Of a stretch of 64,000 nucleotides of DNA, positions 1,948 to 60,864 are shown piece after piece. Source of the DNA: Alphaproteobacteria bacterium (lineage in GTDB: Bacteria; Pseudomonadota; Alphaproteobacteria; MPNO01); assembly GCA_964291675.2 (NCBI GenBank), contig OZ219866.1, positions 1,504,001 to 1,568,000 on the forward strand. The letters run 5' to 3'. Numbering within the stretch: the first letter of the stretch is position 1; every line of letters starts with the position of its first letter. The notes under the pieces are model-generated. The model was not told the DNA's origin, searched no databases, and was given only the letters and a program-made list of their open reading frames with translations. The position numbers were made by a program, and so were the translations under genes.

Positions 1948-3111
1948 ATGGCTGAAAAGCTGGTCATCAGGAATATCGGCCTGCTTCTGTCCGGGGCGCT
2001 GGAGACCCCGGTGCTCGATGCCGACACCGTGGTCGCCGAGGACGGAAGGATCGCCGCCTTCGGCAGGGAGGCCGACTGCAATACCGCCGGCGCCGATATC
2101 GTCATCGACGCCAGGGGGATGGCGCTCGCCCCCGGGCTGATCGACAGCCATGTCCACCCGGTGTTCGGCGACTGGACGCCGCGCCAGAGCCAGCTCAACT
2201 GGATCGACTCGTCGATGCATGGCGGGGTGACGACGATGATCTCCGCCGGCGAGGTCCATCTGCCCGGCCGGCCGCGCGATCCCAAGGGGGTGGTCGCGCT
2301 CGGCATCACCGCCCAGCGCGCCTTCTCTTCCTTCCCGCCGGGCGGGGTCAAGGTGCGCGCCGGCGCGCCCATCCTGGAGACCGGGATGGAGGAGGACGAT
2401 TTCCGCTTCCTCGCCGAGGCCGGCGTCAAGCTGCTGGGCGAGATCGGGCTCGGCGGGGTGAAGACCGGCGAAGAGGCGAAGAAGATGGTCGGCTGGGCGC
2501 GCAAATACGGCATCCAGTCGACGATCCATACCGGCGGCCCGTCGATCCCCGGCTCCGGGCTGATCGACGCCGACATCGTGCTGGAGACCGGACCCGACAT
2601 CATCGGCCACATCAATGGCGGGCACACCTCGCTGCCGCGGGACCAGATCGCGTGTTTGTGCGAGCAGTGCCAGGCGGGGATCGAGATCGTGCACAACGGC
2701 AACGAGGCCTCGGCCCTGTTCGCGCTGCGCACCGCGCGCGAGCTCGACCAGCTCCACCGGGTCATCCTCGGCACCGACGGGCCGGCGGGCTCGGGCGTTC
2801 AGCCGCTCGGGATCCTAAGGATGGTCGCGATGCTGTCGGCCTTGGGCGACGTGCCGGCGGAGATCGCGTTCTGCTTCGCCACCGGCAACACCGCGCGGAT
2901 GCGGGAGCTCGATTGCGGGCTGATCGAGGAAGGCCGGGCGGCCGATTTCGTCCTGCTCGACCGCGCCCAGCACAGCGCCGGCAGGGATTTGCTCGACTCC
3001 GTCGGCAAGGGCGACATCCCCGGAATCGGCATGGTGGTCATCGACGGCAAGGTCGCGTCGGGCCGCAGCCGCAACACCCCGCCCGCCGACCGCCTGCCGG
3101 AAGTCCTGTAG
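1948..3111 (+). CDS. Amidohydrolase-superfamily enzyme, enamidase-like (nicotinate fermentation enamidase family)
   Basis: PGLIDSHVH, GGVTTMISAG, HTGGPSIPGS, HINGG, GTDGPAGSG and C-terminal SRNTPPA follow the Eubacterium barkeri enamidase sequence as I recall it. Confidence 0.8.
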   Translation: MAEKLVIRNIGLLLSGALETPVLDADTVVAEDGRIAAFGREADCNTAGADIVIDARGMALAPGLIDSHVHPVFGDWTPRQSQLNWIDSSMHGGVTTMISAGEVHLPGRPRDPKGVVALGITAQRAFSSFPPGGVKVRAGAPILETGMEEDDFRFLAEAGVKLLGEIGLGGVKTGEEAKKMVGWARKYGIQSTIHTGGPSIPGSGLIDADIVLETGPDIIGHINGGHTSLPRDQIACLCEQCQAGIEIVHNGNEASALFALRTARELDQLHRVILGTDGPAGSGVQPLGILRMVAMLSALGDVPAEIAFCFATGNTARMRELDCGLIEEGRAADFVLLDRAQHSAGRDLLDSVGKGDIPGIGMVVIDGKVASGRSRNTPPADRLPEVL

Positions 3112-3378
3112 CCCGCATTTCCCGCCCCTGTCATGGCCTGCGCGGCGCTGTCCGGCCGACAGGGCAGGAGAGGCGCGCGGCGCGATGCGGGGACATCGGG
3201 CAAGCGCCTCGACGCACCCTGTCGGCCGGACAGCGCCGCCCGAAGGGTCGCGCCCGGGCGCCCGCCCGCGTCGTCGCGGGCCTCGACCGTATTGCCCGAT
3301 ACGCCCTTCGGCCCGCTCCTGGCGGGACGAACGCCCGGGCGCGACGCAGGCCGTGACAGGGGTGAGAAATGCGGGCTA
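3109..3378. repeat. 270-bp structured MITE/REPIN-like element, copy 1
   Basis: 34-bp terminal inverted repeats (3109-3142 and 3345-3378, 3 mismatches) and an internal perfect 23-bp inverted repeat. A near-identical copy lies at 19933-20202. Confidence 0.9.
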
Positions 3379-3960
3379 GCGAAGCCCGTCCTCGCCCTTG
3401 GCCTCGTCGGTCGTCAGCCCGCCCACGCGCGGGAACGGGCGGCCCGAGTCGGTGACCGCGACCGCCACCAGGATCTCGCCTGCGCGCGGGGCGTCGGCGA
3501 GTCTGACCTCGATCCCGTCGAAATGGCTGCGCACATAGGCCGCGTCCTTGTGGCCGAGCGGGATGTCGATCGGCGTGCCGGGCCCGCCCATCTTCTTGGC
3601 CGAGGGGACCAGCGCGGCGCCCTTCTCGACCGCCTTGCGCAGCGGCGCGCCGAGCTTCGGGTGGAGGATCGCGGCTGCGTGCTCCCACTCGCCCTGCTCG
3701 CCGACGATCGCCGCCTTGCCGTAGCTCTCGGCCCGGTCGGGACGGATGCCGAGCGCGGCCACGCACATTTCGCCCAGCATGGCGCCCAGCTCCGCGCCGA
3801 TATCCATCAACGGCGCGAGGTCTTCCTCGTAGCGGCCGGCGAAGGGGTTCGCGATCACCGCGATGGCCGCCGCCTTGCGGGTCGGCGGGTCGACCGGACG
3901 GCCGATCTCGGAGCGGATCTCCTCGACCACCACGCTGGTCTTTCTGATTTCGGCGCCCAT
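3376..3960 (-). CDS. Amino acid synthesis (AA_synth/DUF1185) family protein
   Basis: MGAEIRK...AAIAVIANPFAGRY...ESYGKAAIVGEQGEWEHAAA...DAPRAGEILVAVA; gagg RBS; paralogue at 62875. Confidence 0.8.
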   Translation of the reverse strand: MGAEIRKTSVVVEEIRSEIGRPVDPPTRKAAAIAVIANPFAGRYEEDLAPLMDIGAELGAMLGEMCVAALGIRPDRAESYGKAAIVGEQGEWEHAAAILHPKLGAPLRKAVEKGAALVPSAKKMGGPGTPIDIPLGHKDAAYVRSHFDGIEVRLADAPRAGEILVAVAVTDSGRPFPRVGGLTTDEAKGEDGLR

Positions 3961-13044: not shown

Positions 13045-13942
13045 TTACGGCGCCTCGAAACGGTCCTCGAAGGCGATCACCTCCCGGAAGCCCATCAGCT
13101 CGTTGAAGTCGGCGAACGGATGAAGCGCGGTATCGGCCGCGCCGGAGGAGCCGTGATCGCGCAGCGCGCGGTAGACCCGGCTCAGCGCCTCGGTGGCCGC
13201 GAGGAAGCCGGCCGCCGGGAAGATGGCGACGCGGAACCCGATCGCCGCCAGCGCGTCCGGCGTGAGCACGGGGGTCAGACCGCCCTCCACCATGTTGGCC
13301 ATCAGCGGGGAATCGAGCAGCCGGGCGGCCTCCTCCATCTCCTCGACCGATGCCGGCGCCTCGTAGAACAGGATGTCGGCGCCGGCCTCCTGGAAGGCTT
13401 CCAGCCGGCGCAGCGCCTCGTCCCGGCTCGCGGCCTTGCGGGCGTCGGTGCGCGCGATGACCAGGAAGTCTTGCTGAGCCGGGAATCGAGCGCGACCCTG
13501 ATCTTGCGCACCATCTCTTCTTGCGCACCATCTCTTCCAGCGGGATCAGACGCATGCCTTCCGTGTGGCCGCATTTCTTGGGGAAGGCCTGGTCCTCGAT
13601 CTGGATCGCGGCGACGCCGGCGCGCTCGTAGCCCTGCACCGTGTGGCGGACATTGACGGTGCCGCCATAGCCGGTATCGGCGTCGGCGATCAGCGGGGTC
13701 TTCGTGCCGGCGGCGATCTGGCCCGCGCGGGCGACCATCTCGGTATAGGTGGCGATCCCGGCATCGGGCAGGCCGAGATGCGAAGCGACGACGCCGGACC
13801 CGGTCATGTAGATCGCCGGAAAGCCCATCGAATCGGCGATGCGTGCCGAGATCATGTCGTAGACGCCGGGCGCGGCGATGAATTCGCCGGAGCGCAGCCG
13901 GTCGGCGAGAGCCCGGGTCTTGGGAACGGAACGGTCGTGCAT
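13045..13942 (-). pseudogene. Isocitrate lyase/PEP mutase family enzyme (2,3-dimethylmalate lyase/PrpB-like), frameshifted twice
   Basis: DADTGYG, IEDQ, PKKCGH, DFLVIARTDAR and ANMVEGG are split across three frames. There is a 17-nt tandem duplication (13502-13518/13519-13535) and a 1-nt loss near 13470. Confidence 0.8.
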
Positions 13943-14068
13943 TGGGGTCCTCCTCTCGGATCGGGACAAGCTACCCGGTTTGCAATTCGAGTCGAGGGCG
14001 GGGTCGAAGCGCGGCAACCGTTATCCGATCGAGCGCCGCTGGATTTTGCGAAAATCGGGGAAACTCTC

Positions 14069-14129
14069 TTGCGTCCTCTCAAAAACGACATATAGTTGTC
14101 ATATTTCCACAAGACACGATATGTAGCGT
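14069..14129 (+). promoter_or_regulatory. Putative sigma70 promoter of the gcrA-like gene, overlapped by tandem NrdR-box-like sites
   Basis: TTGCGT(14069)-N16-TATAGT(14091). Boxes aaaCGACATATAGttg (14083-14098) and acaCGATATGTAGcgt (14114-14129) are 31 bp apart. Confidence 0.6.
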
Positions 14130-19932: not shown

Positions 19933-20202
19933 CAGCCCGGAATTCCCGCCACTGTCATGGCCTGCGCGGCGCTGTCCGGCCGACAGGGCAGGAGAGGCGC
20001 GCGGCGCGATGCGGGGACATCGGGCAAGCGCCTCGACGCACCCTGTCGGCCGGACGGCGCCGCCCGAAGGGTCGCGCCCGGGCGCCCGCCCGCTGCGTCG
20101 CGGTCCTCGACCGTAGTTCCTGCTACGCCCTTCGGCCCGCTCCTGGCGGGACGAACGCCCGGGCGCGACGCAGGCCGTGACAGTGGCGGGAATTCCGGGC
20201 TA
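19933..20202. repeat. 270-bp structured MITE/REPIN-like element, copy 2
   Basis: Same length as 3109-3378 and near-identical to it; terminal inverted repeat agcccggaattcccgccactgtca / tgacagtggcgggaattccgggct. Confidence 0.9.
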
Positions 20203-20245
20203 GGCTGGCGCCGCGAAATCGCGTCAAGAGGTTCACCCCGGGACC

Positions 20246-24012: not shown

Positions 24013-26340
24013 ATGACCATGGTGCGGATCGGCGATGCCGTCAGGCGGGGCGAGGATTTCCGGCTGCTCAGGGGGCGGGGGCGCTATCTCGACGACGTCG
24101 CGGCGCCCGGCCAGGCCCGCGCCTTCGTCCTGCGCTCGCCGCACGCGCATGCCGACATCCGCTCCATCGACAGCGGCGCGGCGCGCGCGGCGCCCGGCGT
24201 GCTCGCCATCCTGACCGGGGACGATCTCGCGGAGCGCGGGCTCGGCACGGTTCGGGCGGTGCTGCCGACAAGGCGCGCCGACGGCTCGCCGGGCTTCAAG
24301 ACGCCGCAGCCGCTGCTCGCCCAGGGGCGCGCCCGCATGGCCGGCCAGGCGGTCGCCTTCATCGTCGCCGAGACCGTGGATGCGGCCAAGGACGCCGCCG
24401 AGCTGATCGACGTCGACTACGCGCCGCTGCCCGCGCTGGCGACGGCGGACGATGCGCTCGCCCCCGGCGCCCCGGCGGTCTGGGACGACAACCCCGGCAA
24501 CGAGGCCTTTACCCACGAGGTCGGCGATGCGGCGGCGACAGCGGACGGGTTCGCGAAGGCGGCTCACGTCGTGCGCCACCGGGTCTGCGTCAACCGGGTG
24601 ACCGGGAACCCGATGGAGCCGCGCGGCTGCCTCGCCCAATATGACGCGTACGAGGAGCGCTACACCATCCGCGCCACCATCCAGTCGGCGCACGGCATCC
24701 GCGCCATCCTGGCGGAGCAGATATTCGGGCTGCCGCAGGGAAGGTTCCGCGTGGTCTGCGACAACATGGGCGGCGGCTTCGGGACCCGCGGCGGCTGCCT
24801 GCCGGAATACGCGCTCGCGCTCTGGGCGTCGGAGGTCGTCGGCCGGCCGGTGAAATGGGTGGCCGAGCGCTCCGAATGCCTGCTGACCGACGAGCAGGCG
24901 CGCGGCGGCTTCGTCGACGCCGAGCTCGCGCTCGATTCCGAATATCGGTTCCTCGCGCTGCGCACCCACACCAGGGTGCCGATCGGCGCCTACTACACGT
25001 CGGACCGCAATTTCGGCTCCACGGTCACCGGGCTCGGCGGGCTCGCCGGGGTGTACCGCACGCCGGCGATCCACGCCAGGGTGACCGGCGCCTTCACCAA
25101 CACCATGACCAACGCCCAGTATCGCGGCGGCGCCAAGCCCGAGCCCTGCCACGTCATCGAGGTGATGGTCGACGTCGCCGCGCGCGAGCTCGGCGTCGAC
25201 CCGGCCGAGCTGCGGTCGATCAACACGCTCTCGCCGGACGAGCTGCCGCACCGGACGTGCCTCGGCGCGGTCTACGATTGCGGCGAGTTTCCCGCCAACC
25301 AGGCGCGCGCGCTGGAGACCGGAGGCTACGGGGATTTCGCGACCCGACGGGCGGAAGCGCTGGAGAAGGGCAAGCTGCTCGGCATCGGCATGTCGCAGAC
25401 CATCTCCGGCGTCGCCATGACCAACTACGAGCATGCCGAGATCCGCTTCGACTCGGGCGGCGGCATCACGCTGCTCACCGGCGCGATGGATCACGGCCAG
25501 GGCCACGGCACCACCTTCCGCCAGATCCTGGCCGACCGGCTGGGCATCGACATGGACGATATCCGCTACCGCTACGGCGATACCGACGCGGTCACCGCCG
25601 GGGTCGGCACCTTCAACGCCCGCTGCGCCGCGCTCGCCGGCTCCGCGGTCGTCGAGGCGGCGGACAAGATCGTCGACAAGGGCAGGCGCATCGCCGCCCA
25701 TATGCTGGAGGCCGCGGAGGCCGACATCGAGCTTTCCGCCGGAAGGTTCGGCATCGCCGGCACCGACCGGTCGGTCGGCCTCGCCGAAATCGCGCGAACC
25801 GCGTTCCAGAAACCCAGACTGCCCCCCGACATCGAGCCCGGGCTCTACGAGCGGGGCGATTTCGGCAGCGACGACGGGCCGGTCTATCCCAACGGGTTCC
25901 ATCTCGCCGAGGTCGAGATCGACCGCGAGACCGGGCGGGTCCGGCTGGTGCGCTACAGCTGCGTCGACGATGCCGGCACCGTGCTCAACCCGATCCTGTT
26001 CGACGCCCAGGTGCATGGCGGAATCGTCCAGGGCGCCGGTCAGATCCTGATGGAGGACGTGGCCTACGACCGCGACGGCCAGCTTCTGTCGGGCTCCTTC
26101 ATGGACTACGCGATGCCGAGGGCGGACGATTTCTGCCATTTCGAGCTCGCCGCCAACGAGGTGCCGACCGCGCGCAACCCGCTCGGCGTCAAGGGGGTTG
26201 GCGAGGCCGGAACCGTCGGCGCGATGCCGTCGATCATGAACGCCGTCAACGACGCGCTGCACCGCATCGGCGCGCCGCCGGTCGAAATGCCGGCGACGGC
26301 GGAGAAGGTCTGGCGGGCGATGCGCCGGGCGGGCGGCTAG
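24013..26340 (+). CDS. Xanthine dehydrogenase/CoxL-family molybdopterin-binding subunit
   Basis: RSPHAHA, MEPRG, GGGFG, YRGGAKPE, GQGHGT, QVHGGIVQG, KGVGEAG. Confidence 0.9.
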   Translation: MTMVRIGDAVRRGEDFRLLRGRGRYLDDVAAPGQARAFVLRSPHAHADIRSIDSGAARAAPGVLAILTGDDLAERGLGTVRAVLPTRRADGSPGFKTPQPLLAQGRARMAGQAVAFIVAETVDAAKDAAELIDVDYAPLPALATADDALAPGAPAVWDDNPGNEAFTHEVGDAAATADGFAKAAHVVRHRVCVNRVTGNPMEPRGCLAQYDAYEERYTIRATIQSAHGIRAILAEQIFGLPQGRFRVVCDNMGGGFGTRGGCLPEYALALWASEVVGRPVKWVAERSECLLTDEQARGGFVDAELALDSEYRFLALRTHTRVPIGAYYTSDRNFGSTVTGLGGLAGVYRTPAIHARVTGAFTNTMTNAQYRGGAKPEPCHVIEVMVDVAARELGVDPAELRSINTLSPDELPHRTCLGAVYDCGEFPANQARALETGGYGDFATRRAEALEKGKLLGIGMSQTISGVAMTNYEHAEIRFDSGGGITLLTGAMDHGQGHGTTFRQILADRLGIDMDDIRYRYGDTDAVTAGVGTFNARCAALAGSAVVEAADKIVDKGRRIAAHMLEAAEADIELSAGRFGIAGTDRSVGLAEIARTAFQKPRLPPDIEPGLYERGDFGSDDGPVYPNGFHLAEVEIDRETGRVRLVRYSCVDDAGTVLNPILFDAQVHGGIVQGAGQILMEDVAYDRDGQLLSGSFMDYAMPRADDFCHFELAANEVPTARNPLGVKGVGEAGTVGAMPSIMNAVNDALHRIGAPPVEMPATAEKVWRAMRRAGG
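26225..26338 (+). repeat. 114-bp direct repeat, left copy (3' end of the Mo-hydroxylase gene)
   Basis: Matches 27207-27320 with one mismatch (26233 a versus 27215 g). Confidence 0.95.
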
Positions 26341-26418
26341 GGCGTATCGGAGGACGCCCTCGAACGCCAATGCAGAAGGGGAATGGTGGCTCAATAAGGT
26401 CGAAAATACTTGCTTCGA

Positions 26419-26482
26419 TATAGTCCGTACAAAAGCGAACCCCGGGCGCATGCGAGACGCAGAGGCGGACCCGGGGGGTTAC
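26419..26482 (+). ncRNA. Candidate structured leader or antitoxin RNA upstream of the Abi gene
   Basis: TATAGT at 26419-26424, then stem aaccccggg (26438-26446) / cccggggggtt (26470-26480) ending 24 nt before the ATG. Confidence 0.4.
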
Positions 26483-26504
26483 AGCTTGAACAGTGGTTTG
26501 CTAG

Positions 26505-27170
26505 ATGACGGAAGTCAACACCTTTCGTGCGCTCGAAAACGCTTTTTCTCGCGAACGGATGCAAACCTACCTTGACGCCGCTCACGGGGATCGAGCGGTA
26601 GCCCTTCAGCACTATACCCGAAACGCACAACTCGGGGCCGCGTTCCACGGACCGTTGCAAGCACTCGAGGTCGCTTTGCGAAACGCCATGCATGCTCGGC
26701 TTGCCGCGCGTTACGGCAGCCAGTGGTACATGAACCCTGCTCCTGGCCTCGACAGCCACGCCCGTGGCGCCATAGACGCCGTTTTGGCGCATGGCATGGG
26801 TGCGCCAACCCCGGGGCAGTTCGTAGCGTCGATGTCGCTGGGCTTCTGGGTAAGGCTTGTCGGCCGTGGCGGCCGCATCAACGGCGGTCGCAAAGCTGAC
26901 TACGAGAGGACACTCTGGCGTCCGGCACTGTTCAAGGCCTTTCCGGGCCGTCCTCGGAGGACAGTACAGCAGAGACTGAATCGCCTGCGACAGCTTCGAA
27001 ACCGGATCGCGCATCACGAACCGATATTCGATCGGGATCTGTGGGAGGACTACCGGAGCCTCCTGGAGGCCGTGGGCTGGATCTCGGCAGATGTCCGAAC
27101 ATGGATTGAGGCCCACAGCATTTTGCCGGGCGCGCTCCAAGCGCCGCGCTCCGCGCCGATCCGTTTCTAG
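26505..27170 (+). CDS. Abi-like (Abi_2/AbiD/AbiF family) HEPN RNase toxin
   Basis: FSRERMQTY, LQALEVALRN, LGFWVRL, LRNRIAHHEPIF (RxxxxH); visibly more A/T-ending codons than the flanking genes. Confidence 0.8.
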   Translation: MTEVNTFRALENAFSRERMQTYLDAAHGDRAVALQHYTRNAQLGAAFHGPLQALEVALRNAMHARLAARYGSQWYMNPAPGLDSHARGAIDAVLAHGMGAPTPGQFVASMSLGFWVRLVGRGGRINGGRKADYERTLWRPALFKAFPGRPRRTVQQRLNRLRQLRNRIAHHEPIFDRDLWEDYRSLLEAVGWISADVRTWIEAHSILPGALQAPRSAPIRF

Positions 27171-27206
27171 CCCGGCTTCGCATCGCCAAGTCATGACGCC
27201 GCGCCT

Positions 27207-27320
27207 TGCCGTCGGTCATGAACGCCGTCAACGACGCGCTGCACCGCATCGGCGCGCCGCCGGTCGAAATGCCGGCGACGGCGGAGAAGGTCTGGCGGGC
27301 GATGCGCCGGGCGGGCGGCT
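27207..27320 (+). repeat. 114-bp direct repeat, right copy (non-coding duplicate ending in TGA)
   Basis: Offset 982 bp from the left copy; encodes the same MNAVNDALHRIGAPPVEMPATAEKVWRAMRRAGG. Confidence 0.95.
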
Positions 27321-27335
27321 GAACGCGAACCCGGG

Positions 27336-27713
27336 TCACCAGCGCCGGTCGACGGGGACCCGGTCGAACACCTTGTCGATCGAAACCAGGGCGCAGCTCT
27401 CCAGCAGCGCCTGGGCCGCCAGCAGCCGGTCCCAGGGATCGCGATGCGCCCAGTCGAGCTGGGCGGCGTATTCCGCGTGGTCGTGGGTGATGGCGAGCTC
27501 TTCCACGGCGTTGCGCCGGAGCGCGGCGCGCAACTCTTGCGGCGGCAAGCTCACCCGCCCGCGTCCCGCCTTGAGCTCGATCTCGTAGATCGAGGCCGCG
27601 CTGACCAGGACCGGGTTCGCGGCGTCCAAGATCAGGTCCCGCGCGACCGCCGAGAGCCTGGGGCTGCCCGCCAACCACCAATAGACCGCCTGGCTGTCGA
27701 GCAGCAGCCTCAC
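27336..27713 (-). CDS. vapC: VapC/PIN-domain toxin
   Basis: RLLLDSQ, VSAASIYEI, HRDPWDRLLAAQA, LVSID; GTGA overlap with the antitoxin. Confidence 0.9.
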   Translation of the reverse strand: MRLLLDSQAVYWWLAGSPRLSAVARDLILDAANPVLVSAASIYEIELKAGRGRVSLPPQELRAALRRNAVEELAITHDHAEYAAQLDWAHRDPWDRLLAAQALLESCALVSIDKVFDRVPVDRRW

Positions 27714-27991
27714 CGACCGGGCGCGCGTCCGCGCCAGATACCGAGCGAATCGGTGCCCGCGCCCGCGTCGATCCCCGCCTGTTCGGGATCCTCGGCGTCG
27801 AACAGATCGTCGGGCAAGCGCAGATGCGCCAGCGGCGCGGACTCGCGTTCTCCCCGCTCGGCCGGCGGCAGCAGCCGGGCATGGGGCTCATCGCCCTTCC
27901 TGATCAGGATCTCCTCCCCGGACCGGGCGCGGTCCAGAATCTCCGAGAAGCGGGCGCGGGCCTCCGCGACCTTGTACGTGGCGGGCGGCAC
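27710..27991 (-). CDS. Phd/YefM-family antitoxin
   Basis: VAEARARFSEILDRARSGEEILIRKGDEPHARLLP; GTG start after ggggag. Confidence 0.85.
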   Translation of the reverse strand: MPPATYKVAEARARFSEILDRARSGEEILIRKGDEPHARLLPPAERGERESAPLAHLRLPDDLFDAEDPEQAGIDAGAGTDSLGIWRGRAPGR

Positions 27992-28067
27992 GATGGAACT
28001 CCCCTGTCTGCGGCGACAGGCGTATTGTACAACAGAGTTGGTCATTTGCAAGGAGGGGCAATCCCGC

Positions 28068-31700: not shown

Positions 31701-31741
31701 GGCGAGGCCGGTTCGGTCTCAGCCGCTGCCGCTACCCCTTT

Positions 31742-32390
31742 CGTCATGCCTGGACTTGATCCGGGCGCCCGCGAGCGGTGCATGGAGAGCCGGGCGCGGC
31801 CCGCCCCATCGCCATGCCTCCCCCCGTCATGCCCGGACTTGATCCACTGCTGTCCGGTTTGTATGAGTTGGACCGGGCGCAAAGCCTTGTTCCGGGCGGG
31901 ATATCGGCGCATCCGCCGGATCGGGACACGGATCGCCGCACGCCCGCACTTGCCGTCCCTGCCTCTCCGTTGTCACGCCGGCCTCGTTCCGGGCACCCAC
32001 GGGCGGGGCGGGCCGCCCCCGGCTCCCGTGCTCCTCCACCGCCACCCCCACCCCGTCATGGCCGGACTTGATCCGGCCACCCATGCGCGGACTTGATCCG
32101 CGCAACCACTGGCGCCACCGGTACAACGCCCCGTCGGAAGGAGCGGCGGCGCCAGTGGATGCCCGGATCAAGTCCGGGCATGACGATGGGGGGAGGCATG
32201 GTGATGGGGCGGGGAACGCCGGGCGCGACCCGCGTCGAAGGCTAAACCGGACAGCAGTGGACTCGATCCGGCCATCCATGGGCGGTGCATGGAGAACCGG
32301 GTGCGGCCCGCCCCCATCGCCATCCCTCCAGACGGATCGCCGTGCGTGGCGAGGGCCGCATGGATGGCCGGATCAAGTCCGGCCATGACG
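31742..32390. repeat. Cluster of gtcatg(g/c)ccggacttgatccgg-type REP palindromes
   Basis: Forward units at about 31743, 31826, 31972 and 32055; reverse units at about 32157-32185 and 32362-32390; a ~47-bp direct repeat at about 31775 and 32282. Confidence 0.9.
31846..32258. mobile_element. 413-bp non-autonomous TIR element inserted in a REP loop
   Basis: Perfect TIRs actgctgtccggttt / aaaccggacagcagt, flanked by ggacttgatcc (31835-31845) and ggactcgatcc (32259-32269). Confidence 0.7.
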
Positions 32391-32524
32391 TGTGAAGAGG
32401 CACGGAGTCGAAAGGCGACGATCTCGTCCATCGGGTCACCGCGTCCTGACAGATATGCGATGGCGGCGCGCAGCAGCGCTTCCGAACGCATTCTGCCGAC
32501 GCATGGGCTCTTGAACGCCGGAAT

Positions 32525-33115
32525 TCAGGCGGCGGTTCGCCAGGGCCTGCCGGACGGGCGTCCGCGAAGCGGATGAGCCCTGGCATAGAGTTCGGCGGCT
32601 GCGAAAGCCTCGCCTGGAACCTCCGGATAGTCGGCCGCAAGGTCGCCCAGCGTGTCGCCGTCCCGCAACCGTCCGAGGATCGCATAAACCGTCAACCGCG
32701 TTCCCGCGATCACCGGCGTCCCGCCCAGGATGTCGGGATCGGACGCAATGTACCGGTCGCGCGCATCCCGGTATCGCTCCGCGGCGCGCAGCGCCTCCCC
32801 CGAGAGCCGTCGCAGGTCGAGCGTCGCTCCGCGGGCGAATTCGACGGTCCCGAGGCGCTTGGGTTCCAGCCGCGCCAGGCGGATCCAGATGGCCCGCTTG
32901 TGGCGCAATGGGAGGTCCGTGAGGCTCGCGGCTTCGAGCGAGTGAAAATAGGCGACGGCCCGGATCGGCAAGAATCGCGTCGCCCCGCCGCGAAAGCGGG
33001 GCGGGGCGGTCACGGCCCGCAAGATCCCCGCTTGCAGCGCTTTCTCTACCGTCGCCTTCGGCACCCGTGACAGGGCGGCGGTCTCCCGAACGGTCAAGTC
33101 GGCGGCGGGTTGCAT
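32525..33115 (-). CDS. DUF433-domain protein (antitoxin-like, with an N-terminal HTH)
   Basis: C-terminal DPDILGGTPVIAGTRLTVYAIL...LAADYPEV; N-terminal LTVRETAALSRV. Confidence 0.8.
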   Translation of the reverse strand: MQPAADLTVRETAALSRVPKATVEKALQAGILRAVTAPPRFRGGATRFLPIRAVAYFHSLEAASLTDLPLRHKRAIWIRLARLEPKRLGTVEFARGATLDLRRLSGEALRAAERYRDARDRYIASDPDILGGTPVIAGTRLTVYAILGRLRDGDTLGDLAADYPEVPGEAFAAAELYARAHPLRGRPSGRPWRTAA

Positions 33116-47807: not shown

Positions 47808-48130
47808 CTACGCCGCCATGGTGGGATCGAGGATCGCTTTGCCGAGGACCGAATCCGACTCTTCCAGACGGCGGTGCTGCGCCGCCGCGGCCGCGAGCGC
47901 GTCGTCGACATTGCGCCGCGTCAGCCCGGCGCCAGGATAGCGCGCACCCGTTCGCGCAGATCCTCCCCGCGGTTGTTGCCGTCGCGCCGCACCGGCAGGT
48001 CGAAGCTGCGGTCGATGGGGACCGCCTCGACCGCCAGCACAACCTCGTCCCGCCCCGGGCTGGGCGCGGGCACCTCGGCGCGGCTGAGCACATCCGGCTC
48101 GCCGAACCTCTCCATGACTGCCGCGCGCAT
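47808..48130 (-). pseudogene. Internally deleted MDR (zinc ADH/quinone oxidoreductase) remnant
   Basis: N-terminal MRAAVMERFGEPDVLSRAEVPAPSPGRDEVVLAVEA and C-terminal AAAAQHRRLEESDSVLGKAILDP are in different frames only ~320 bp apart. Confidence 0.7.
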
Positions 48131-48180
48131 GGCCGGGGATGCCATTCGTTACGCCGCCAAGCCCGATGGGATCCGCGTCT

Positions 48181-48960
48181 TCACTCGGGCCTCTGAACCG
48201 GACCGCCATCGCTGCGGTGACGGCGCAACCCCGCACCGTAGGCACACAGCAGGTTCTCGTAATCCGTCGCCGACGGCAGGACCCTTGCGCCTTCCATGAG
48301 AGGAAACGTCATGACGGTGTCCTTCTCACGGTCCAGGTGCCCGAGCCCCAGCACGTGTCCCAGCTCATGAGCCATGACACTCAACGCATCCATTTCTCTC
48401 CTGCCCGGCAGAGCTTCGCCATAATTCACGCGTGGTCTCTTGTGCATGTATACCTCGATGTCGGCGTCGGTGATCGGGCTGCGGGTATCGTGGCTGCCTG
48501 GCGGCGAGGCAGTCGGCGGCCCGGAACGCCAGGAGATCGTGGTGACCGCCATCCGCCTTGCCGGCGCGCCCTCCGACAGGACGATGGCATTCACGCCGTC
48601 GTCCGCGGCCTCCAACCTGCTTTGGGAAGACCGCCATTCGAACAATTGCAGGGAAACCACGCCGAAGTCCGGTCTGCCTGTGCCGAACGGGTCTCCCTCG
48701 TACTCGGCCATGAGATACGCCGCCCAGCCGCGATTCCACCGCTGCATCGCTTCGACTGCGACGTCGATTATGGCGGGTGGCAGATCGGACGACAGGTGCA
48801 TGACGACCGGGAAGCTCTCGACCGGTTGCGTCACCGCGTTGCCGGACTCCACGCGGAAGGTGCAAAGCCGGTCTGCCTCGCCCAAGGGGGTGCCGTGCCG
48901 CACCTCCGCTCCCGGATCGCCGGCGAGAGCAACCGGAAGAACCACCGAAAGACAGCACAA
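48181..48960 (-). CDS. Matrixin/M10-like metzincin metalloprotease, probably secreted (start uncertain)
   Basis: HELGHVLGLGH zinc motif, TVM Met-turn, ITDADIE, hydrophobic signal-like N-terminus. Confidence 0.75.
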   Translation of the reverse strand: MCCLSVVLPVALAGDPGAEVRHGTPLGEADRLCTFRVESGNAVTQPVESFPVVMHLSSDLPPAIIDVAVEAMQRWNRGWAAYLMAEYEGDPFGTGRPDFGVVSLQLFEWRSSQSRLEAADDGVNAIVLSEGAPARRMAVTTISWRSGPPTASPPGSHDTRSPITDADIEVYMHKRPRVNYGEALPGRREMDALSVMAHELGHVLGLGHLDREKDTVMTFPLMEGARVLPSATDYENLLCAYGAGLRRHRSDGGPVQRPE

Positions 48961-49043
48961 CCAGGAAAGACCGAGGATCCGAATCGTCGATACACCCGCG
49001 CCGGTGGCCGGGATTGCCTTGTCGAGGGGACGAATGGGCGAGT

Positions 49044-49331
49044 CTACCGCAACAGCTCCTGAACCACCGAAGGCCTCTTGGCGATCAGCGCGAGCAGCAC
49101 CTGCGCCGGTCCGGTCGGCCGCCGCCGCCCATGCTCCCAGTTGAGCAGCGTCCCCCTCGCCACCCCGATGCTGCGGGCGAACTCGCCTTGCGACAGGCCG
49201 GTCTGCCGGCGGATCTGTGCCACGTCGATATCCGGCAACTCGATTTCGTGCACCGTGGCGCCGCCGGTCTTGCCGTGGGCGAAGGCGAGCGCCTCCTCCA
49301 GGCCCTTCTTCACGCTCCCGTATGCGGTCAT
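49044..49331 (-). CDS. XRE/HigA-type antitoxin
   Basis: DVAQIRRQTGLSQGEFA...TLLNWEHGRRRPTGPAQVLL; ATGA overlap with the toxin. Confidence 0.88.
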   Translation of the reverse strand: MTAYGSVKKGLEEALAFAHGKTGGATVHEIELPDIDVAQIRRQTGLSQGEFARSIGVARGTLLNWEHGRRRPTGPAQVLLALIAKRPSVVQELLR

Positions 49332-49669
49332 GGCTCGGCTCCATATGTCGCGAGGATGCGCTTGCTCAGCGCCACGGCAGCCGCCTGTTCGCTCCGTGAC
49401 AGGTTCGCCCTCTCATTCTTGGCGAAGACCGTCACCAGAAAGATCGGCATGTGCGATCCGCCGAATACGTAAATCACCCGGAACCCGCCGCTCTTCCCAC
49501 CGTCCTGGCGCGATATTCGGACCTTTCTCAGACCGCCGCCCAGCGACACGCCTATCTGCGGATTCGCCGCGATGAAGGCGATCGCCGCTTCCCGCTCGCG
49601 GTCCGACATCGTCGCTTTGGCGCGGCGCTGAAACTCCGGCAGCTCTACTACTGTCTGCAGCCGCGTCAT
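49328..49669 (-). CDS. RelE/HigB2-family toxin
   Basis: VVELPEF, GGLRKVR, GKSGGFRVIY, VFAKNERANLS. Confidence 0.9.
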   Translation of the reverse strand: MTRLQTVVELPEFQRRAKATMSDREREAAIAFIAANPQIGVSLGGGLRKVRISRQDGGKSGGFRVIYVFGGSHMPIFLVTVFAKNERANLSRSEQAAAVALSKRILATYGAEP

Positions 49670-58219: not shown

Positions 58220-60292
58220 TCAACCGGCCCCCGCCGCCCTGACGATGACGTTGCCGAGACGGTCGACGGTGCCGGCGAGGCCGGGGTCGATGAAGGCGGT
58301 GGCGTCGTCCTGTTCGAGGATCGCCGGGCCCGCCACCGTCATGCCGGCGGGCAGCGCGAGGCGGTCGTAGACCGCGGTCTCGTGCCACGCCCCCTCCCAC
58401 CGGACGCGCCGCGATCCCCTGAGCGCGGCCTCCGGCGTGGCGTCGGGCGGCGGCGCGAGGGCGGCGAGGTCGAACTTGCGGCGCACCCCGATCGCCGCCG
58501 TTCTGAGCGACAGCAGGCGCACGCCGATCCCCTCCAGCAGGCGCCCGTAGGTCTTGCGGTAGGCGGTCTCGAAGGCGGTGCGGATCATCGCGAGCGACAC
58601 GTCGGTCGCGCCGCCCGCGAGGCGCGCGGGCAGCGGAACCGGGACCGTGTGGGTCTGGCCGATATAGGACATGTCGAGCTCGAAGGCGGTCTCCAGGCGC
58701 TCCAGCCCCGCCCCCGAGCGGCGCAGCAGCGCGAGCCCGCGCTCGGCGGTCTCGGCCATCTCGGCATCGAGCGCGGCCACGTCGAGCGCGTCGAGCGGGC
58801 GGTTGATGGTGTGCACGAAGTCGTGGCGCATGTCGGCGATGACGCAGCCGAGCGCGCTGGTCACGCCGGGGAAGCGCGGGATCAGCGCGGCGCCGAGCCC
58901 GACATCGCGGATCAGCGCGCCGACATGGAGCGCGCCGCCGCCGCCGAACGGCATGGCGGCGAACATCTTGGGGTCGTAGCCGCGCTCGATGGAGACCAGC
59001 CTTATCGCCCCGGCCATGCTGGAATTCGCCACCTTGACGATCGCCTCGGCGGCCGCCGCCACATCGAGCCCGAGCGGCGCGGCGACATGCTCGCGGATGG
59101 CCGCCCGGGCGGCGTCCACGTCGAGCCGGCCGAGCCCCTCGCCGATCGGGCGGTCGGGGTCGATGCGCCCGAGCGCGAGGTTGGCGTCGGTCACCGTCGG
59201 GCGGTCGTTACCGCGGCCGTAGCAGGCGGGGCCCGGATCGGCGCCCGCCGATTGCGGGCCGACGGCGAGGAAGCCGCCGCGGTCGACCGCGGCGATCGAG
59301 CCGCCGCCGGCGCCGATGGTGGTGATCTCGATCATCGGCGTGCGCACGACGAGGCCGAAATCGATCGCCGCCTGGGCGCAATAGGCGCTCCTGCCGTCGG
59401 CGATCAGGGCGACGTCGAAGCTGGTGCCGCCCATGTCGCAGGTGATCACGTTGGCGAAGCCCGCCGCCTCGGCGATCCTGGCGCCGGCGATCACCCCCGC
59501 CGCCGGCCCCGACAGGGTCGTGCGCACCGGGAGGGTGCGCGCGGTGTCGACCGACATCACCCCGCCATTGGACTGGACGATCAGCAGCTCGGCATCGATG
59601 CCGCGCTCCGCGAACCCGGCCTCGACGCCCTCCAGATAGGCGCCGAAGACGGGCTGCAGGCAGACATTGAGCGCGGTGGTCGAGGCGCGCTCGAACTCGC
59701 GGATCTCGGGCAGGATCAGCGAGGACGCGTTGACATGGTCGTTGGGCCAGACCGCGCGCACCGCCTCCAGCGCGGCGCGCTCGTTGGCGTCGTTGGCATA
59801 GGCGTTGATGAAGACGATGCCGACCGCCTCGCAGCCGCGCTCCAGCAGGGTCTGCGCGGCGCGCCTCGCCTCGCCGGAATCGACCGGCTTGCGGACCGTG
59901 CCGTCGGCAAGCGTCCGCTCGTCGACCTCGACGGCGAGGTCGCGCGTCACCACCGGCCGGTAGCTGCCCCACAGCCCCCAGGTGTTGGGCCGGTCGCGCC
60001 GGCGCATCTCCAGCACGTCGCGGAAGCCGCGCGTGGCGATCAGCCCGGTGCGCGCGGCCTTGCGTTCCAGCAGCGCGTTGGTGCCGACGGTGGTGCCGTG
60101 GACCACGGAGCCGATCTCCGCCGGATCGTCCACCGACGCCTCGATGCCGCCCAAAAAGCCCTTGGCGATGTCGTCCCGGACCGACGGCACCTTGCCGATG
60201 CCGTACCGCCCGCTGCGCTCGTCGAGCCAGAACACGTCGGTAAAGGTGCCGCCGACATCGACGCCGACCAGCATGCCGGAGCCGCCGGTCAC
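58220..60292 (-). CDS. Hydantoinase A / 5-oxoprolinase ATP-binding subunit (start GTG 60292 or ATG 60274)
   Basis: GVDVGGTFTD, HGTTVGTN, SGPAAG, DMGGTS, GAGGGS, GPACY, TVTDAN. Confidence 0.92.
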   Translation of the reverse strand: MTGGSGMLVGVDVGGTFTDVFWLDERSGRYGIGKVPSVRDDIAKGFLGGIEASVDDPAEIGSVVHGTTVGTNALLERKAARTGLIATRGFRDVLEMRRRDRPNTWGLWGSYRPVVTRDLAVEVDERTLADGTVRKPVDSGEARRAAQTLLERGCEAVGIVFINAYANDANERAALEAVRAVWPNDHVNASSLILPEIREFERASTTALNVCLQPVFGAYLEGVEAGFAERGIDAELLIVQSNGGVMSVDTARTLPVRTTLSGPAAGVIAGARIAEAAGFANVITCDMGGTSFDVALIADGRSAYCAQAAIDFGLVVRTPMIEITTIGAGGGSIAAVDRGGFLAVGPQSAGADPGPACYGRGNDRPTVTDANLALGRIDPDRPIGEGLGRLDVDAARAAIREHVAAPLGLDVAAAAEAIVKVANSSMAGAIRLVSIERGYDPKMFAAMPFGGGGALHVGALIRDVGLGAALIPRFPGVTSALGCVIADMRHDFVHTINRPLDALDVAALDAEMAETAERGLALLRRSGAGLERLETAFELDMSYIGQTHTVPVPLPARLAGGATDVSLAMIRTAFETAYRKTYGRLLEGIGVRLLSLRTAAIGVRRKFDLAALAPPPDATPEAALRGSRRVRWEGAWHETAVYDRLALPAGMTVAGPAILEQDDATAFIDPGLAGTVDRLGNVIVRAAGAG

Positions 60293-60573
60293 GCCGCGAA
60301 ACGCTCGACCGCGATCTCGTCGGCGCGATGCCGGACCTGCCACAGGTCGTGGGCCATCTGCATGCCGAGCCAGGTCTCCGGCGTCGAGCCGAAGGCTTTG
60401 GACAGGCGTATCGCCATCTCGACCGAGATGCCCGTGCGACCGTTCACCAGCTCCGACAGCGCCTGCCGGGTGACGCCCAGCCCCCGTGCCGCCCGCGTCA
60501 CGGTGAGGCCGAGGGGTTCGAGGCACTGCCGTTTCACGATGCCGCCCGGATGCGGCGGGTTGTGCATGCCCAT
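60289..60573 (-). CDS. higA: HigA-family antitoxin
   Basis: NPPHPG, LGVTRQALSELVNG, MAIRLSKAFGSTPETWL..Q..DL. Confidence 0.92.
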   Translation of the reverse strand: MGMHNPPHPGGIVKRQCLEPLGLTVTRAARGLGVTRQALSELVNGRTGISVEMAIRLSKAFGSTPETWLGMQMAHDLWQVRHRADEIAVERFAA

Positions 60574-60585
60574 GTTCCCGTCTCC

Positions 60586-60864
60586 TCAGTGATAGTCCAC
60601 GTAGTCTACGTCGACCGCCTCGCCATCCTCGAACCGGAAGGTGATGCGCCAGTTGGCGGATACCGAAACCGCCCAATGCCCTTTCAGCGATCCCTTCAAC
60701 TCGTGCAGGCGGAAGCCCGGCAGATCCATTCCCTCCGGCCCGCGGCTGAGATCGAGCGCCGCCAGGATGTCCCGAAGCCTCTCCACATGCGCTGGCGCCA
60801 CGCGCCGCGCTGTCCTGCCTTCGTAGAGCGCCTTCAGGCCGCGATGCCGGAACGAAGCAATCAC
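60586..60864 (-). CDS. higB: HigB (plasmid maintenance killer/RelE-like) toxin
   Basis: IASFRHRGL, LPGFRLHELKG, WAVSVSANWRITFRF, DYH C-terminus. Confidence 0.92.
   Translation of the reverse strand: MIASFRHRGLKALYEGRTARRVAPAHVERLRDILAALDLSRGPEGMDLPGFRLHELKGSLKGHWAVSVSANWRITFRFEDGEAVDVDYVDYH

Follow-up and report, generated by a model that had tools for sequence, protein, structure and literature searches.

An AbiF-like gene with an uncatalogued leader between two copies of a host gene's 3′ end: a fresh example of a known scar type

The AbiF-like RNase family is linked to the origin of Cas13. In published AbiF systems, the RNase is neutralised by an upstream RNA (bioRxiv 10.1101/2025.04.15.648962; PMC12737573; PMC13064643). 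We describe an Abi_2/AbiF-like gene in a stretch of an alphaproteobacterial genome (GenBank assembly GCA_964291675.2, contig OZ219866.1, positions 1,504,001 to 1,568,000; the whole 64,000-nt stretch is called the window below). The gene lies between two 114-nt copies of the 3′ end of a xanthine dehydrogenase (XDH)-family gene. Scars of this type are known, and the locus provides a fresh, clean one around an AbiF-like unit with an uncatalogued leader. We put the probability at roughly one half that this unit and its leader were added by integrase-independent, single-crossover (Campbell) recombination.

For the cargo, the closest described systems are the type III-like toxin–antitoxin (TA) units of AbiF/Abi_2 (the AbiD/F group), such as PbAbiF with its non-coding RNA (ncRNA; structure 8vz6) and AbiF–RCd22 of C. 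difficile, with which the window protein shares the Abi_2 HEPN domain, the R-x4-H motif and a best fold match to 8vz6. However, it is shorter than PbAbiF (221 versus 297 aa) and 13–14% identical to it. As in lactococcal AbiD/F (PMC13064643), the upstream non-coding region is more conserved than the gene. The leader in the window is a single GC-rich hairpin without a match to the Rfam abiF RNA (RF03085).

For the arrangement, several systems are comparable. A cis-mobilisable element (CIME) also has integrase-less cargo between two target-gene ends, without transfer genes and with the gene intact, but it retains, always at one fixed site, the attL and attR of a known integrase family (PMC5704250), whereas sites, repeat lengths and junctions of the type seen here vary and no cognate element is known for them. 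Unconventional circularizable structures (UCS) and the island for microcin H47, which lacks an integrase and has repeats of 148/144 bp, are likewise recombinase-free segments between long direct repeats, both excisable in principle (PMC7843796, PMC5426353); in the window, by contrast, the repeats are the host gene's own 3′ end and the cargo is a defence gene. Prophage e14 in icd also restores a protein-coding target and leaves a displaced 3′ end beyond the insert (icdC, 165 bp), but it is 15 kb long, has its own integrase and has copies that differ at 12 nt. Linear DNA recircularised in E. coli (PMC3240628) and the HFIR-type displacement arrays of the V. cholerae type VI secretion system (T6SS; PMC5361080), for which homology-anchored displacement was proposed, share with the window locus one-sided homology, one crossover, a target-end duplication of ~100–950 bp and a displaced old end. 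The E. coli case is a laboratory construct and the T6SS case concerns effector–immunity arrays, whereas here a natural defence cargo stands on metabolic genes. The locus is made up of the following features.

24013–26340 (+): host gene, XDH-family molybdopterin-binding subunit, 775 aa, intact (Pfam MoCoBD_1/2, Ald_Xan_dh_C); the target gene.
26225–26338 (+): left repeat, functional 3′ end of the host gene, putatively the donor-derived copy.
26339–26401 (+): decayed tail of an unknown 85-aa gene, with the adjoining spacer, from collinear alignment with L001 and L003; its first two bases complete the host TAG stop.
26431–26483 (+): conserved structured leader (stem, AGAG bulge, terminal hairpin), a candidate RNA antitoxin or cis-regulator of the Abi gene.
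26505–27170 (+): predicted Abi_2/AbiF-like HEPN RNase gene, 221 aa, motif R165-x4-H170 (Pfam, PADLOC, fold match).
27171–27206 (+): truncated Abi 3′ flank, ending at a non-homologous junction with the right repeat (match to the L002 flank, reached in 0 of 500 shuffles).
27207–27322 (+): right repeat plus TGA, an orphan host 3′ end without a start, putatively the displaced original end.

The two 114-nt copies (26225–26338 and 27207–27320) stand 982 nt apart and are 99% identical, as the original prediction had it; the duplication was also called recent, in keeping with this identity. A small correction concerns the stop codons: identity ends at their T, and the stops differ (TAG at 26338–26340, TGA at 27320–27322). 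Within the repeat, 105 nt match perfectly, and no exact direct repeat elsewhere in the window is as long; the chance probability is ~1e-47 given base composition. The single mismatch (A26233/G27215) turns ATC (Ile) on the left into GTC (Val) on the right; Ile is also present in 11 of 11 nearest XDH homologs (P0121–P0131), and Val is frequent at this position across the family (70 of 116 parsed homologs). The nearest homologs are 772–775 aa long and end at the same position, and the host gene scores under every NCBIfam equivalog cut-off. Excision in silico gives an intact 775-aa host open reading frame (ORF), so cargo loss should be harmless to the host gene, as had been claimed. By their geometry, the repeats would also allow the cargo to be excised or amplified. 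In a DNA search against plasmids, the XDH end was the sole match. Rfam M23 matches on the repeats were dismissed as chance (18.7 bits against a cut-off of 41.2), as was, by estimate, a 7-bp inverted repeat at the right junction. A diversity-generating retroelement was dropped, with no reverse transcriptase in the window and only a single mismatch.

The original prediction also stated that no recombinase is present. None of the 57 called genes encodes an integrase, resolvase or transposase, and tblastn with 13 recombinase/transposase queries found no match in the whole window. No tRNA or tmRNA gene was found by a search of the window. Thus, an integrase of its own, as in integrative mobilisable elements, integrative conjugative elements and prophages, is not seen in the window.

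In the mechanism that we favour, the Abi unit would already have stood directly after the XDH stop in a close relative. A transferred fragment with the last 114 bp of the gene and the cargo would then have been trimmed and circularised; its junction (27206/27207) is observed, and the circle is presumed. One homologous crossover in the common 114 bp would give, in order, an intact gene, the cargo, the displaced old end and the old neighbour. This arrangement is what the locus has, and the Campbell-type geometry first proposed is supported to that extent; the route to it is presumed. The cargo may persist through addiction (stable RNase, labile RNA) and/or phage protection, to judge from the AbiF literature, and the repeats would later decay, as in older examples at 70–87% identity. 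A gene end brought in from a donor by one crossover explains why the homology is bounded by the stop, why there are two alleles and why the old end is displaced. In an E. coli experiment, 56 of 60 clones obtained with linear DNA homologous to the target on one side had a duplicated target end, 109–950 bp long in the 14 sequenced, through recircularisation and a single crossover (PMC3240628); the repeats here fall in this range.

The same bracket was found elsewhere. A search for Abi homologs returned 1179 proteins, and the best 28 form a clade at 66–95% identity; a scan of GTDB genomes provided 30 loci, all from metagenome-assembled genomes (MAGs) and numbered with L below. A scan for further 3′-end duplications at defence genes, of the kind proposed as a check in the original prediction, found them in related genomes at host genes of five more kinds and, in a control set, at one gene of a plasmid.

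L014: kynureninase gene; repeat of 116 bp, 97% identity; Abi bracketed.
L005: major facilitator superfamily (MFS) gene; two segments (127 and 129 bp) left of ~560 bp originally, after an internal deletion; Abi bracketed.
L017: aldehyde dehydrogenase gene; 4.5 kb with Mrr_N and methylase genes.
L030: 2-oxoglutarate (2OG) oxygenase gene; cargo of a MazF-type pair and others.
L021: EngB GTPase gene.
L041: thermonuclease gene on a complete Leisingera plasmid; Abi-family gene bracketed.

Taking the window together with the 30 loci, Abi itself lies between long direct repeats of a host gene end in the window, L014 and L005, and across all bracketed loci the repeats are ~65–560 bp long. A uniform scan gave 7 gene-end duplicates per 429 genes (30 sources), or 6 after dropping L002, and 1 per 152 genes at 10 plasmid loci. 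There was no enrichment in symbionts (6/429 versus 1/152, Fisher p 0.68), with plasmids being an imperfect control for this rate. Per Abi_2 locus, the frequency of the scar is ~1/10, with 3 of 30 symbiont-type sources and 1 of 10 plasmid loci. Hence, the bracket is not unique to the window locus, and it has not proved special to symbionts. L012 (both SulP copies are fragments), L016 (the repeat is mostly an antitoxin end), L020, L022 and L024 (internal fragments), L002 (part of a tandem repeat) and L009 were left out of the bracket count, and L024, a duplicate of L022, is absent from the uniform scan. L027 was dropped as a bracket since its cargo also occurs in L016 and it resembles duplication plus deletion. 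In the literature searched (main texts, mostly open-access), no description was found of gene-end scars around defence genes.

Some of these loci have further features of their own. The bracketed cargo of L014 (8139–10594) also has an AT-rich 279-aa ORF; its repeat begins 115 nt ahead of the stop end and that of the window 116 nt, and in both the first mismatch comes 8 nt in, possibly by chance. At L017 (10947–15228), the Mrr_N protein, an 830-aa protein without a Pfam or PADLOC match and the DNA methylase make a candidate unclassified restriction-like system. L020 (6727–10640) has partial duplicates of an ABC gene and of the Abi leader and end, an apparent duplication-then-deletion intermediate. 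In L012 (3878–5758), a multi-ubiquitin, ThiF/DUF6791 and DUF6527 trio lies in the defence island of Abi.

The recurrence bears on whether the locus is an artefact, with strain haplotypes with and without Abi merged into one assembly path. The relatives are all MAGs, and none of the listed clusters matches the Abi protein of the window exactly (best 95%), as this explanation would have it. Against this, some molecule must contain the junction 27206/27207, at which the Abi flank meets sequence from the middle of a gene. The chromosome-level records L017, L030 and L021 and the complete plasmid L041 have the same layout, and aged copies at other loci cannot arise by assembly. We regard an artefact as very improbable.

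The cargo unit is not a defined mobile element, judging from its ends, which were cut out of flanks that are longer elsewhere. The leftmost 63 nt are collinear with the 85-aa gene and the spacer found ahead of Abi in L001, L003, L004 and L011 (shuffled sequences reached the alignment score in 0 of 500 cases for L001 and 4 of 500 for L003). On the right, the flank common to L001 and L002 runs ~80 nt past the Abi stop, of which the window retains 36 nt. Past this stop, the bracketed cargo extends for 36 nt in the window, ~115 in L014 and ~125 in L005, left ends differ as well, and junction positions are different in every bracketed locus. Conserved termini common to copies at different sites were not found. 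The proposals of a discrete mobile cassette and of mobilisation in trans are accordingly not supported: the flank pieces run further in relatives and the left end decayed before the repeat arose, and nothing points to action in trans, with unrelated targets, differing repeat lengths and no common att motif. The upstream gene in the relatives (L001 1739–1996, L003 9611–9868, L011 9601–9867) is conserved at 85 aa, has no Pfam or PADLOC match and falls in unnamed atlas clusters; it may be an uncharacterised defence partner.

Truncated ends would also be left by an eroded integrative element (a CIME or grounded prophage), in which a tyrosine- or serine-integrase element replaced the XDH 3′ end and later lost all but the addictive Abi unit. 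Gene-end duplication that ends at the stop is a known scar of such elements (PMC5704250; PMC11148124; PMC6379469). Moreover, the L014 cargo has an IS1595 stub and two tRNA-like genes, and members of the Abi clade lie near resolvases (L002) and integrases (L026). However, no integrase or resolvase match was found in any of the seven bracketed cargoes, even at 97–99% repeat identity, and the six targets are unrelated, mostly accessory genes without a common core. A relative with a larger integrase island at the XDH site was not seen either, that site not having been surveyed in other genomes. Repeats start 64–469 nt before the stop in the six junction sets. Recent deletion also fits the left remnant poorly: its tail identity to L001 is 22/35 in the window versus 32/35 in L003 and 29/35 in L011, where the identity of Abi is similar or lower. 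The remnant had thus escaped selection well before the repeat, with its 99% identity, came into being. If an integrase element had entered and later eroded, one would expect fixed sites and surviving integrases, neither of which is seen across six unrelated target genes; if a recircularised fragment had entered by homologous single crossover, targets should be arbitrary and repeats variable. We thus favour recircularisation and crossover, at about even odds, over erosion, which we regard as possible but doubtful.

The copies themselves bear on their origin. At L017, the decayed copy adjoins Abi and the intact gene precedes the new cargo; in the empty-site counterparts L016, L027, L028, L029 and L030, the intact gene adjoins Abi. 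Hence, the old neighbour has stayed beside the distal copy. The two copies of L021, and likewise those of L030, have their stop at the same codon, with alternative C-termini and conservative or silent changes, and by their sequences these gene ends look like two natural alleles from different genomes.

Duplication in place, by tandem duplication and deletion or by sister-chromosome template switching that captured foreign DNA and copied 114 bp, would need no second genome. By reasoning, it should give pN/pS near 0.5, and several pairs are near this value; the window copies are 99% identical with a single change in the orphan copy, and L020 and L027 resemble duplication-plus-deletion products. 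In contrast, both copies have a stop in the window, L014, L021 and L030, and homology there runs out at the stop or no more than 16 nt from it. Distal copies in L021 and L030 encode full alternative C-termini, and synonymous changes prevail in L030 (5/6) and L027 (21/28). We consider this origin unlikely.

Several points weigh against single-crossover recombination as the route. It needs a donor with gene and cargo already adjacent, and the first origin of this adjacency is unexplained. Integrase elements give the same two-allele scar, as e14 does in icd with 165 bp and 12 changes (PMC11148124). The tRNA-like genes and IS stub of L014 suggest the remains of some larger mobile element. For most pairs, pN/pS lies at 0.28–0.68, compatible with duplication in place and then decay, and the window copies differ at one site, which leaves the two-allele test without power. 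In addition, neither an empty nor a donor allele was seen for the XDH site, the site not having been surveyed in other genomes.

The identity of the cargo gene is supported by sequence and fold. The 868-bp cargo has lower GC and one gene only, whose GC content at third codon positions (GC3) is 0.68 versus 0.93 for the host gene and the second lowest among the 57 called genes. Its protein reaches 27.0 bits against the Pfam Abi_2 cut-off of 25.6, a marginal match over 24 residues, and PADLOC reports PD-T4-5 and AbiD (AbiD E 1e-6). The original prediction of a 221-aa Abi_2/AbiF-like gene with atypical codon usage thus holds. The catalytic motif is intact (R165-N-R-I-A-H170); among 29 sequences, R165, N166 and R167 are invariant and H170 is at least 90% conserved. 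A PDB sequence search gave no match, and the AlphaFold model (pLDDT 84.8) has PbAbiF–ncRNA 8vz6 as its top match in both Foldseek (prob 1.0, TM 0.57, E 2.2e-3; next E 1.2) and VIA (Z 11.9, under the tool's caution level of ~13 for helical bundles; 200 aligned, rmsd 3.9; next Z 6.3). By analogy, the cargo may work like an AbiF type III toxin–antitoxin unit, with RNA binding and phage defence. The close clade covers Alphaproteobacteria and Chloroflexota, at unrelated sites, and some members are split or internally deleted (L014, L026), which indicates high turnover. Several of the 30 loci appear to come from sponge-associated bacteria (Spongia, Poriferisodalis), and the remaining ones presumably do.

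The cargo had been described as one Abi gene and its upstream region. The single gene stands, but the upstream region is more than that, with a conserved structured leader and a decayed gene remnant. The leader (~26431–26483) is present, with hardly any change, in every one of the 15 clade loci for which upstream sequence is available. Across 13 loci, identity to the window is 89–100% in the leader core, 72–86% in the coding sequence and 42–64% in DNA further upstream. A model built from the 15 sequences recovers these and three plasmid homologs at ~51% protein identity (E 1e-5 to 1e-6), with one weak unrelated match besides in 637 kb searched. In 14 sequences, 96% of cells pair and 4 pairs have double changes, all from two distant sequences, which makes covariation thin. 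The fold is no better than that of shuffles (z -0.77), so the case for the leader rests on conservation. Rfam, including abiF RF03085, has no leader match in the window (gathering, E <=10) or in 13 related loci (E <=5), and a promoter/terminator scan gave 0 promoters and 1 terminator versus 1.0 expected. From sequence, the upstream region is probably a second component, a candidate RNA antitoxin. The Acidimicrobiales homologs (L015–L030) have a different conserved leader, located ~75–120 nt ahead of the match and in most cases following a GC-rich hairpin; joint alignment with them gave no usable consensus, the model from the 15 sequences missed them and only an AGAGGC anchor is common.

Other features of the window are as follows.

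27336–27994 (−): VapBC-type pair, with PIN toxin (27336–27713) and Phd/YefM antitoxin (27710–27994) (Pfam PIN, PhdYeFM_antitox).

This pair is convergent, lies 13 nt beyond the TGA of the right repeat and is possibly earlier cargo at the same intergenic hotspot. An orphan C-terminal third of a PrpB/phosphonomutase-like gene (13045–13338, −), without a full copy among the called genes, is possibly an older scar; it adjoins the ORF with the lowest GC3 of the window (13565–14095, +; 0.61, no Pfam match). At 47921–49669, a weak N-terminal quinone oxidoreductase fragment (E 6e-4) lies near a low-GC3 peptidase-like ORF and a RelE/HTH pair. A HigBA-type pair (60289–60864, −) stands between hydantoinase B and A genes without flanking duplication, and a DUF433 gene lies at 32525–33115. 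Two copies of a 270-bp intergenic element (3110–3379 and 19934–20203; 94% identical, with ~40-bp terminal inverted repeats) resemble miniature inverted-repeat transposable elements, and nested inverted repeats of 34–52 bp are clustered at 31732–32400, like repetitive extragenic palindromic elements.

Taken alone, the window locus is one fresh example of a known scar type. Displaced gene ends are a countable and datable scar of one route by which defence genes reach new sites without integrase or transposase, and comparing alleles of one site would separate this route from site-specific integration. With the leader comes a candidate RNA antitoxin, GC-rich and outside Rfam coverage, for an AbiF-like RNase. 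More tentatively, recombinase-free single crossover on the end of an arbitrary neighbouring gene could be a general, overlooked route that stacks defence genes at hotspots. If so, each displaced 3′ gene end would be a searchable scar, and each new cassette would be excisable and amplifiable through its own repeats, with TA addiction preventing its loss.

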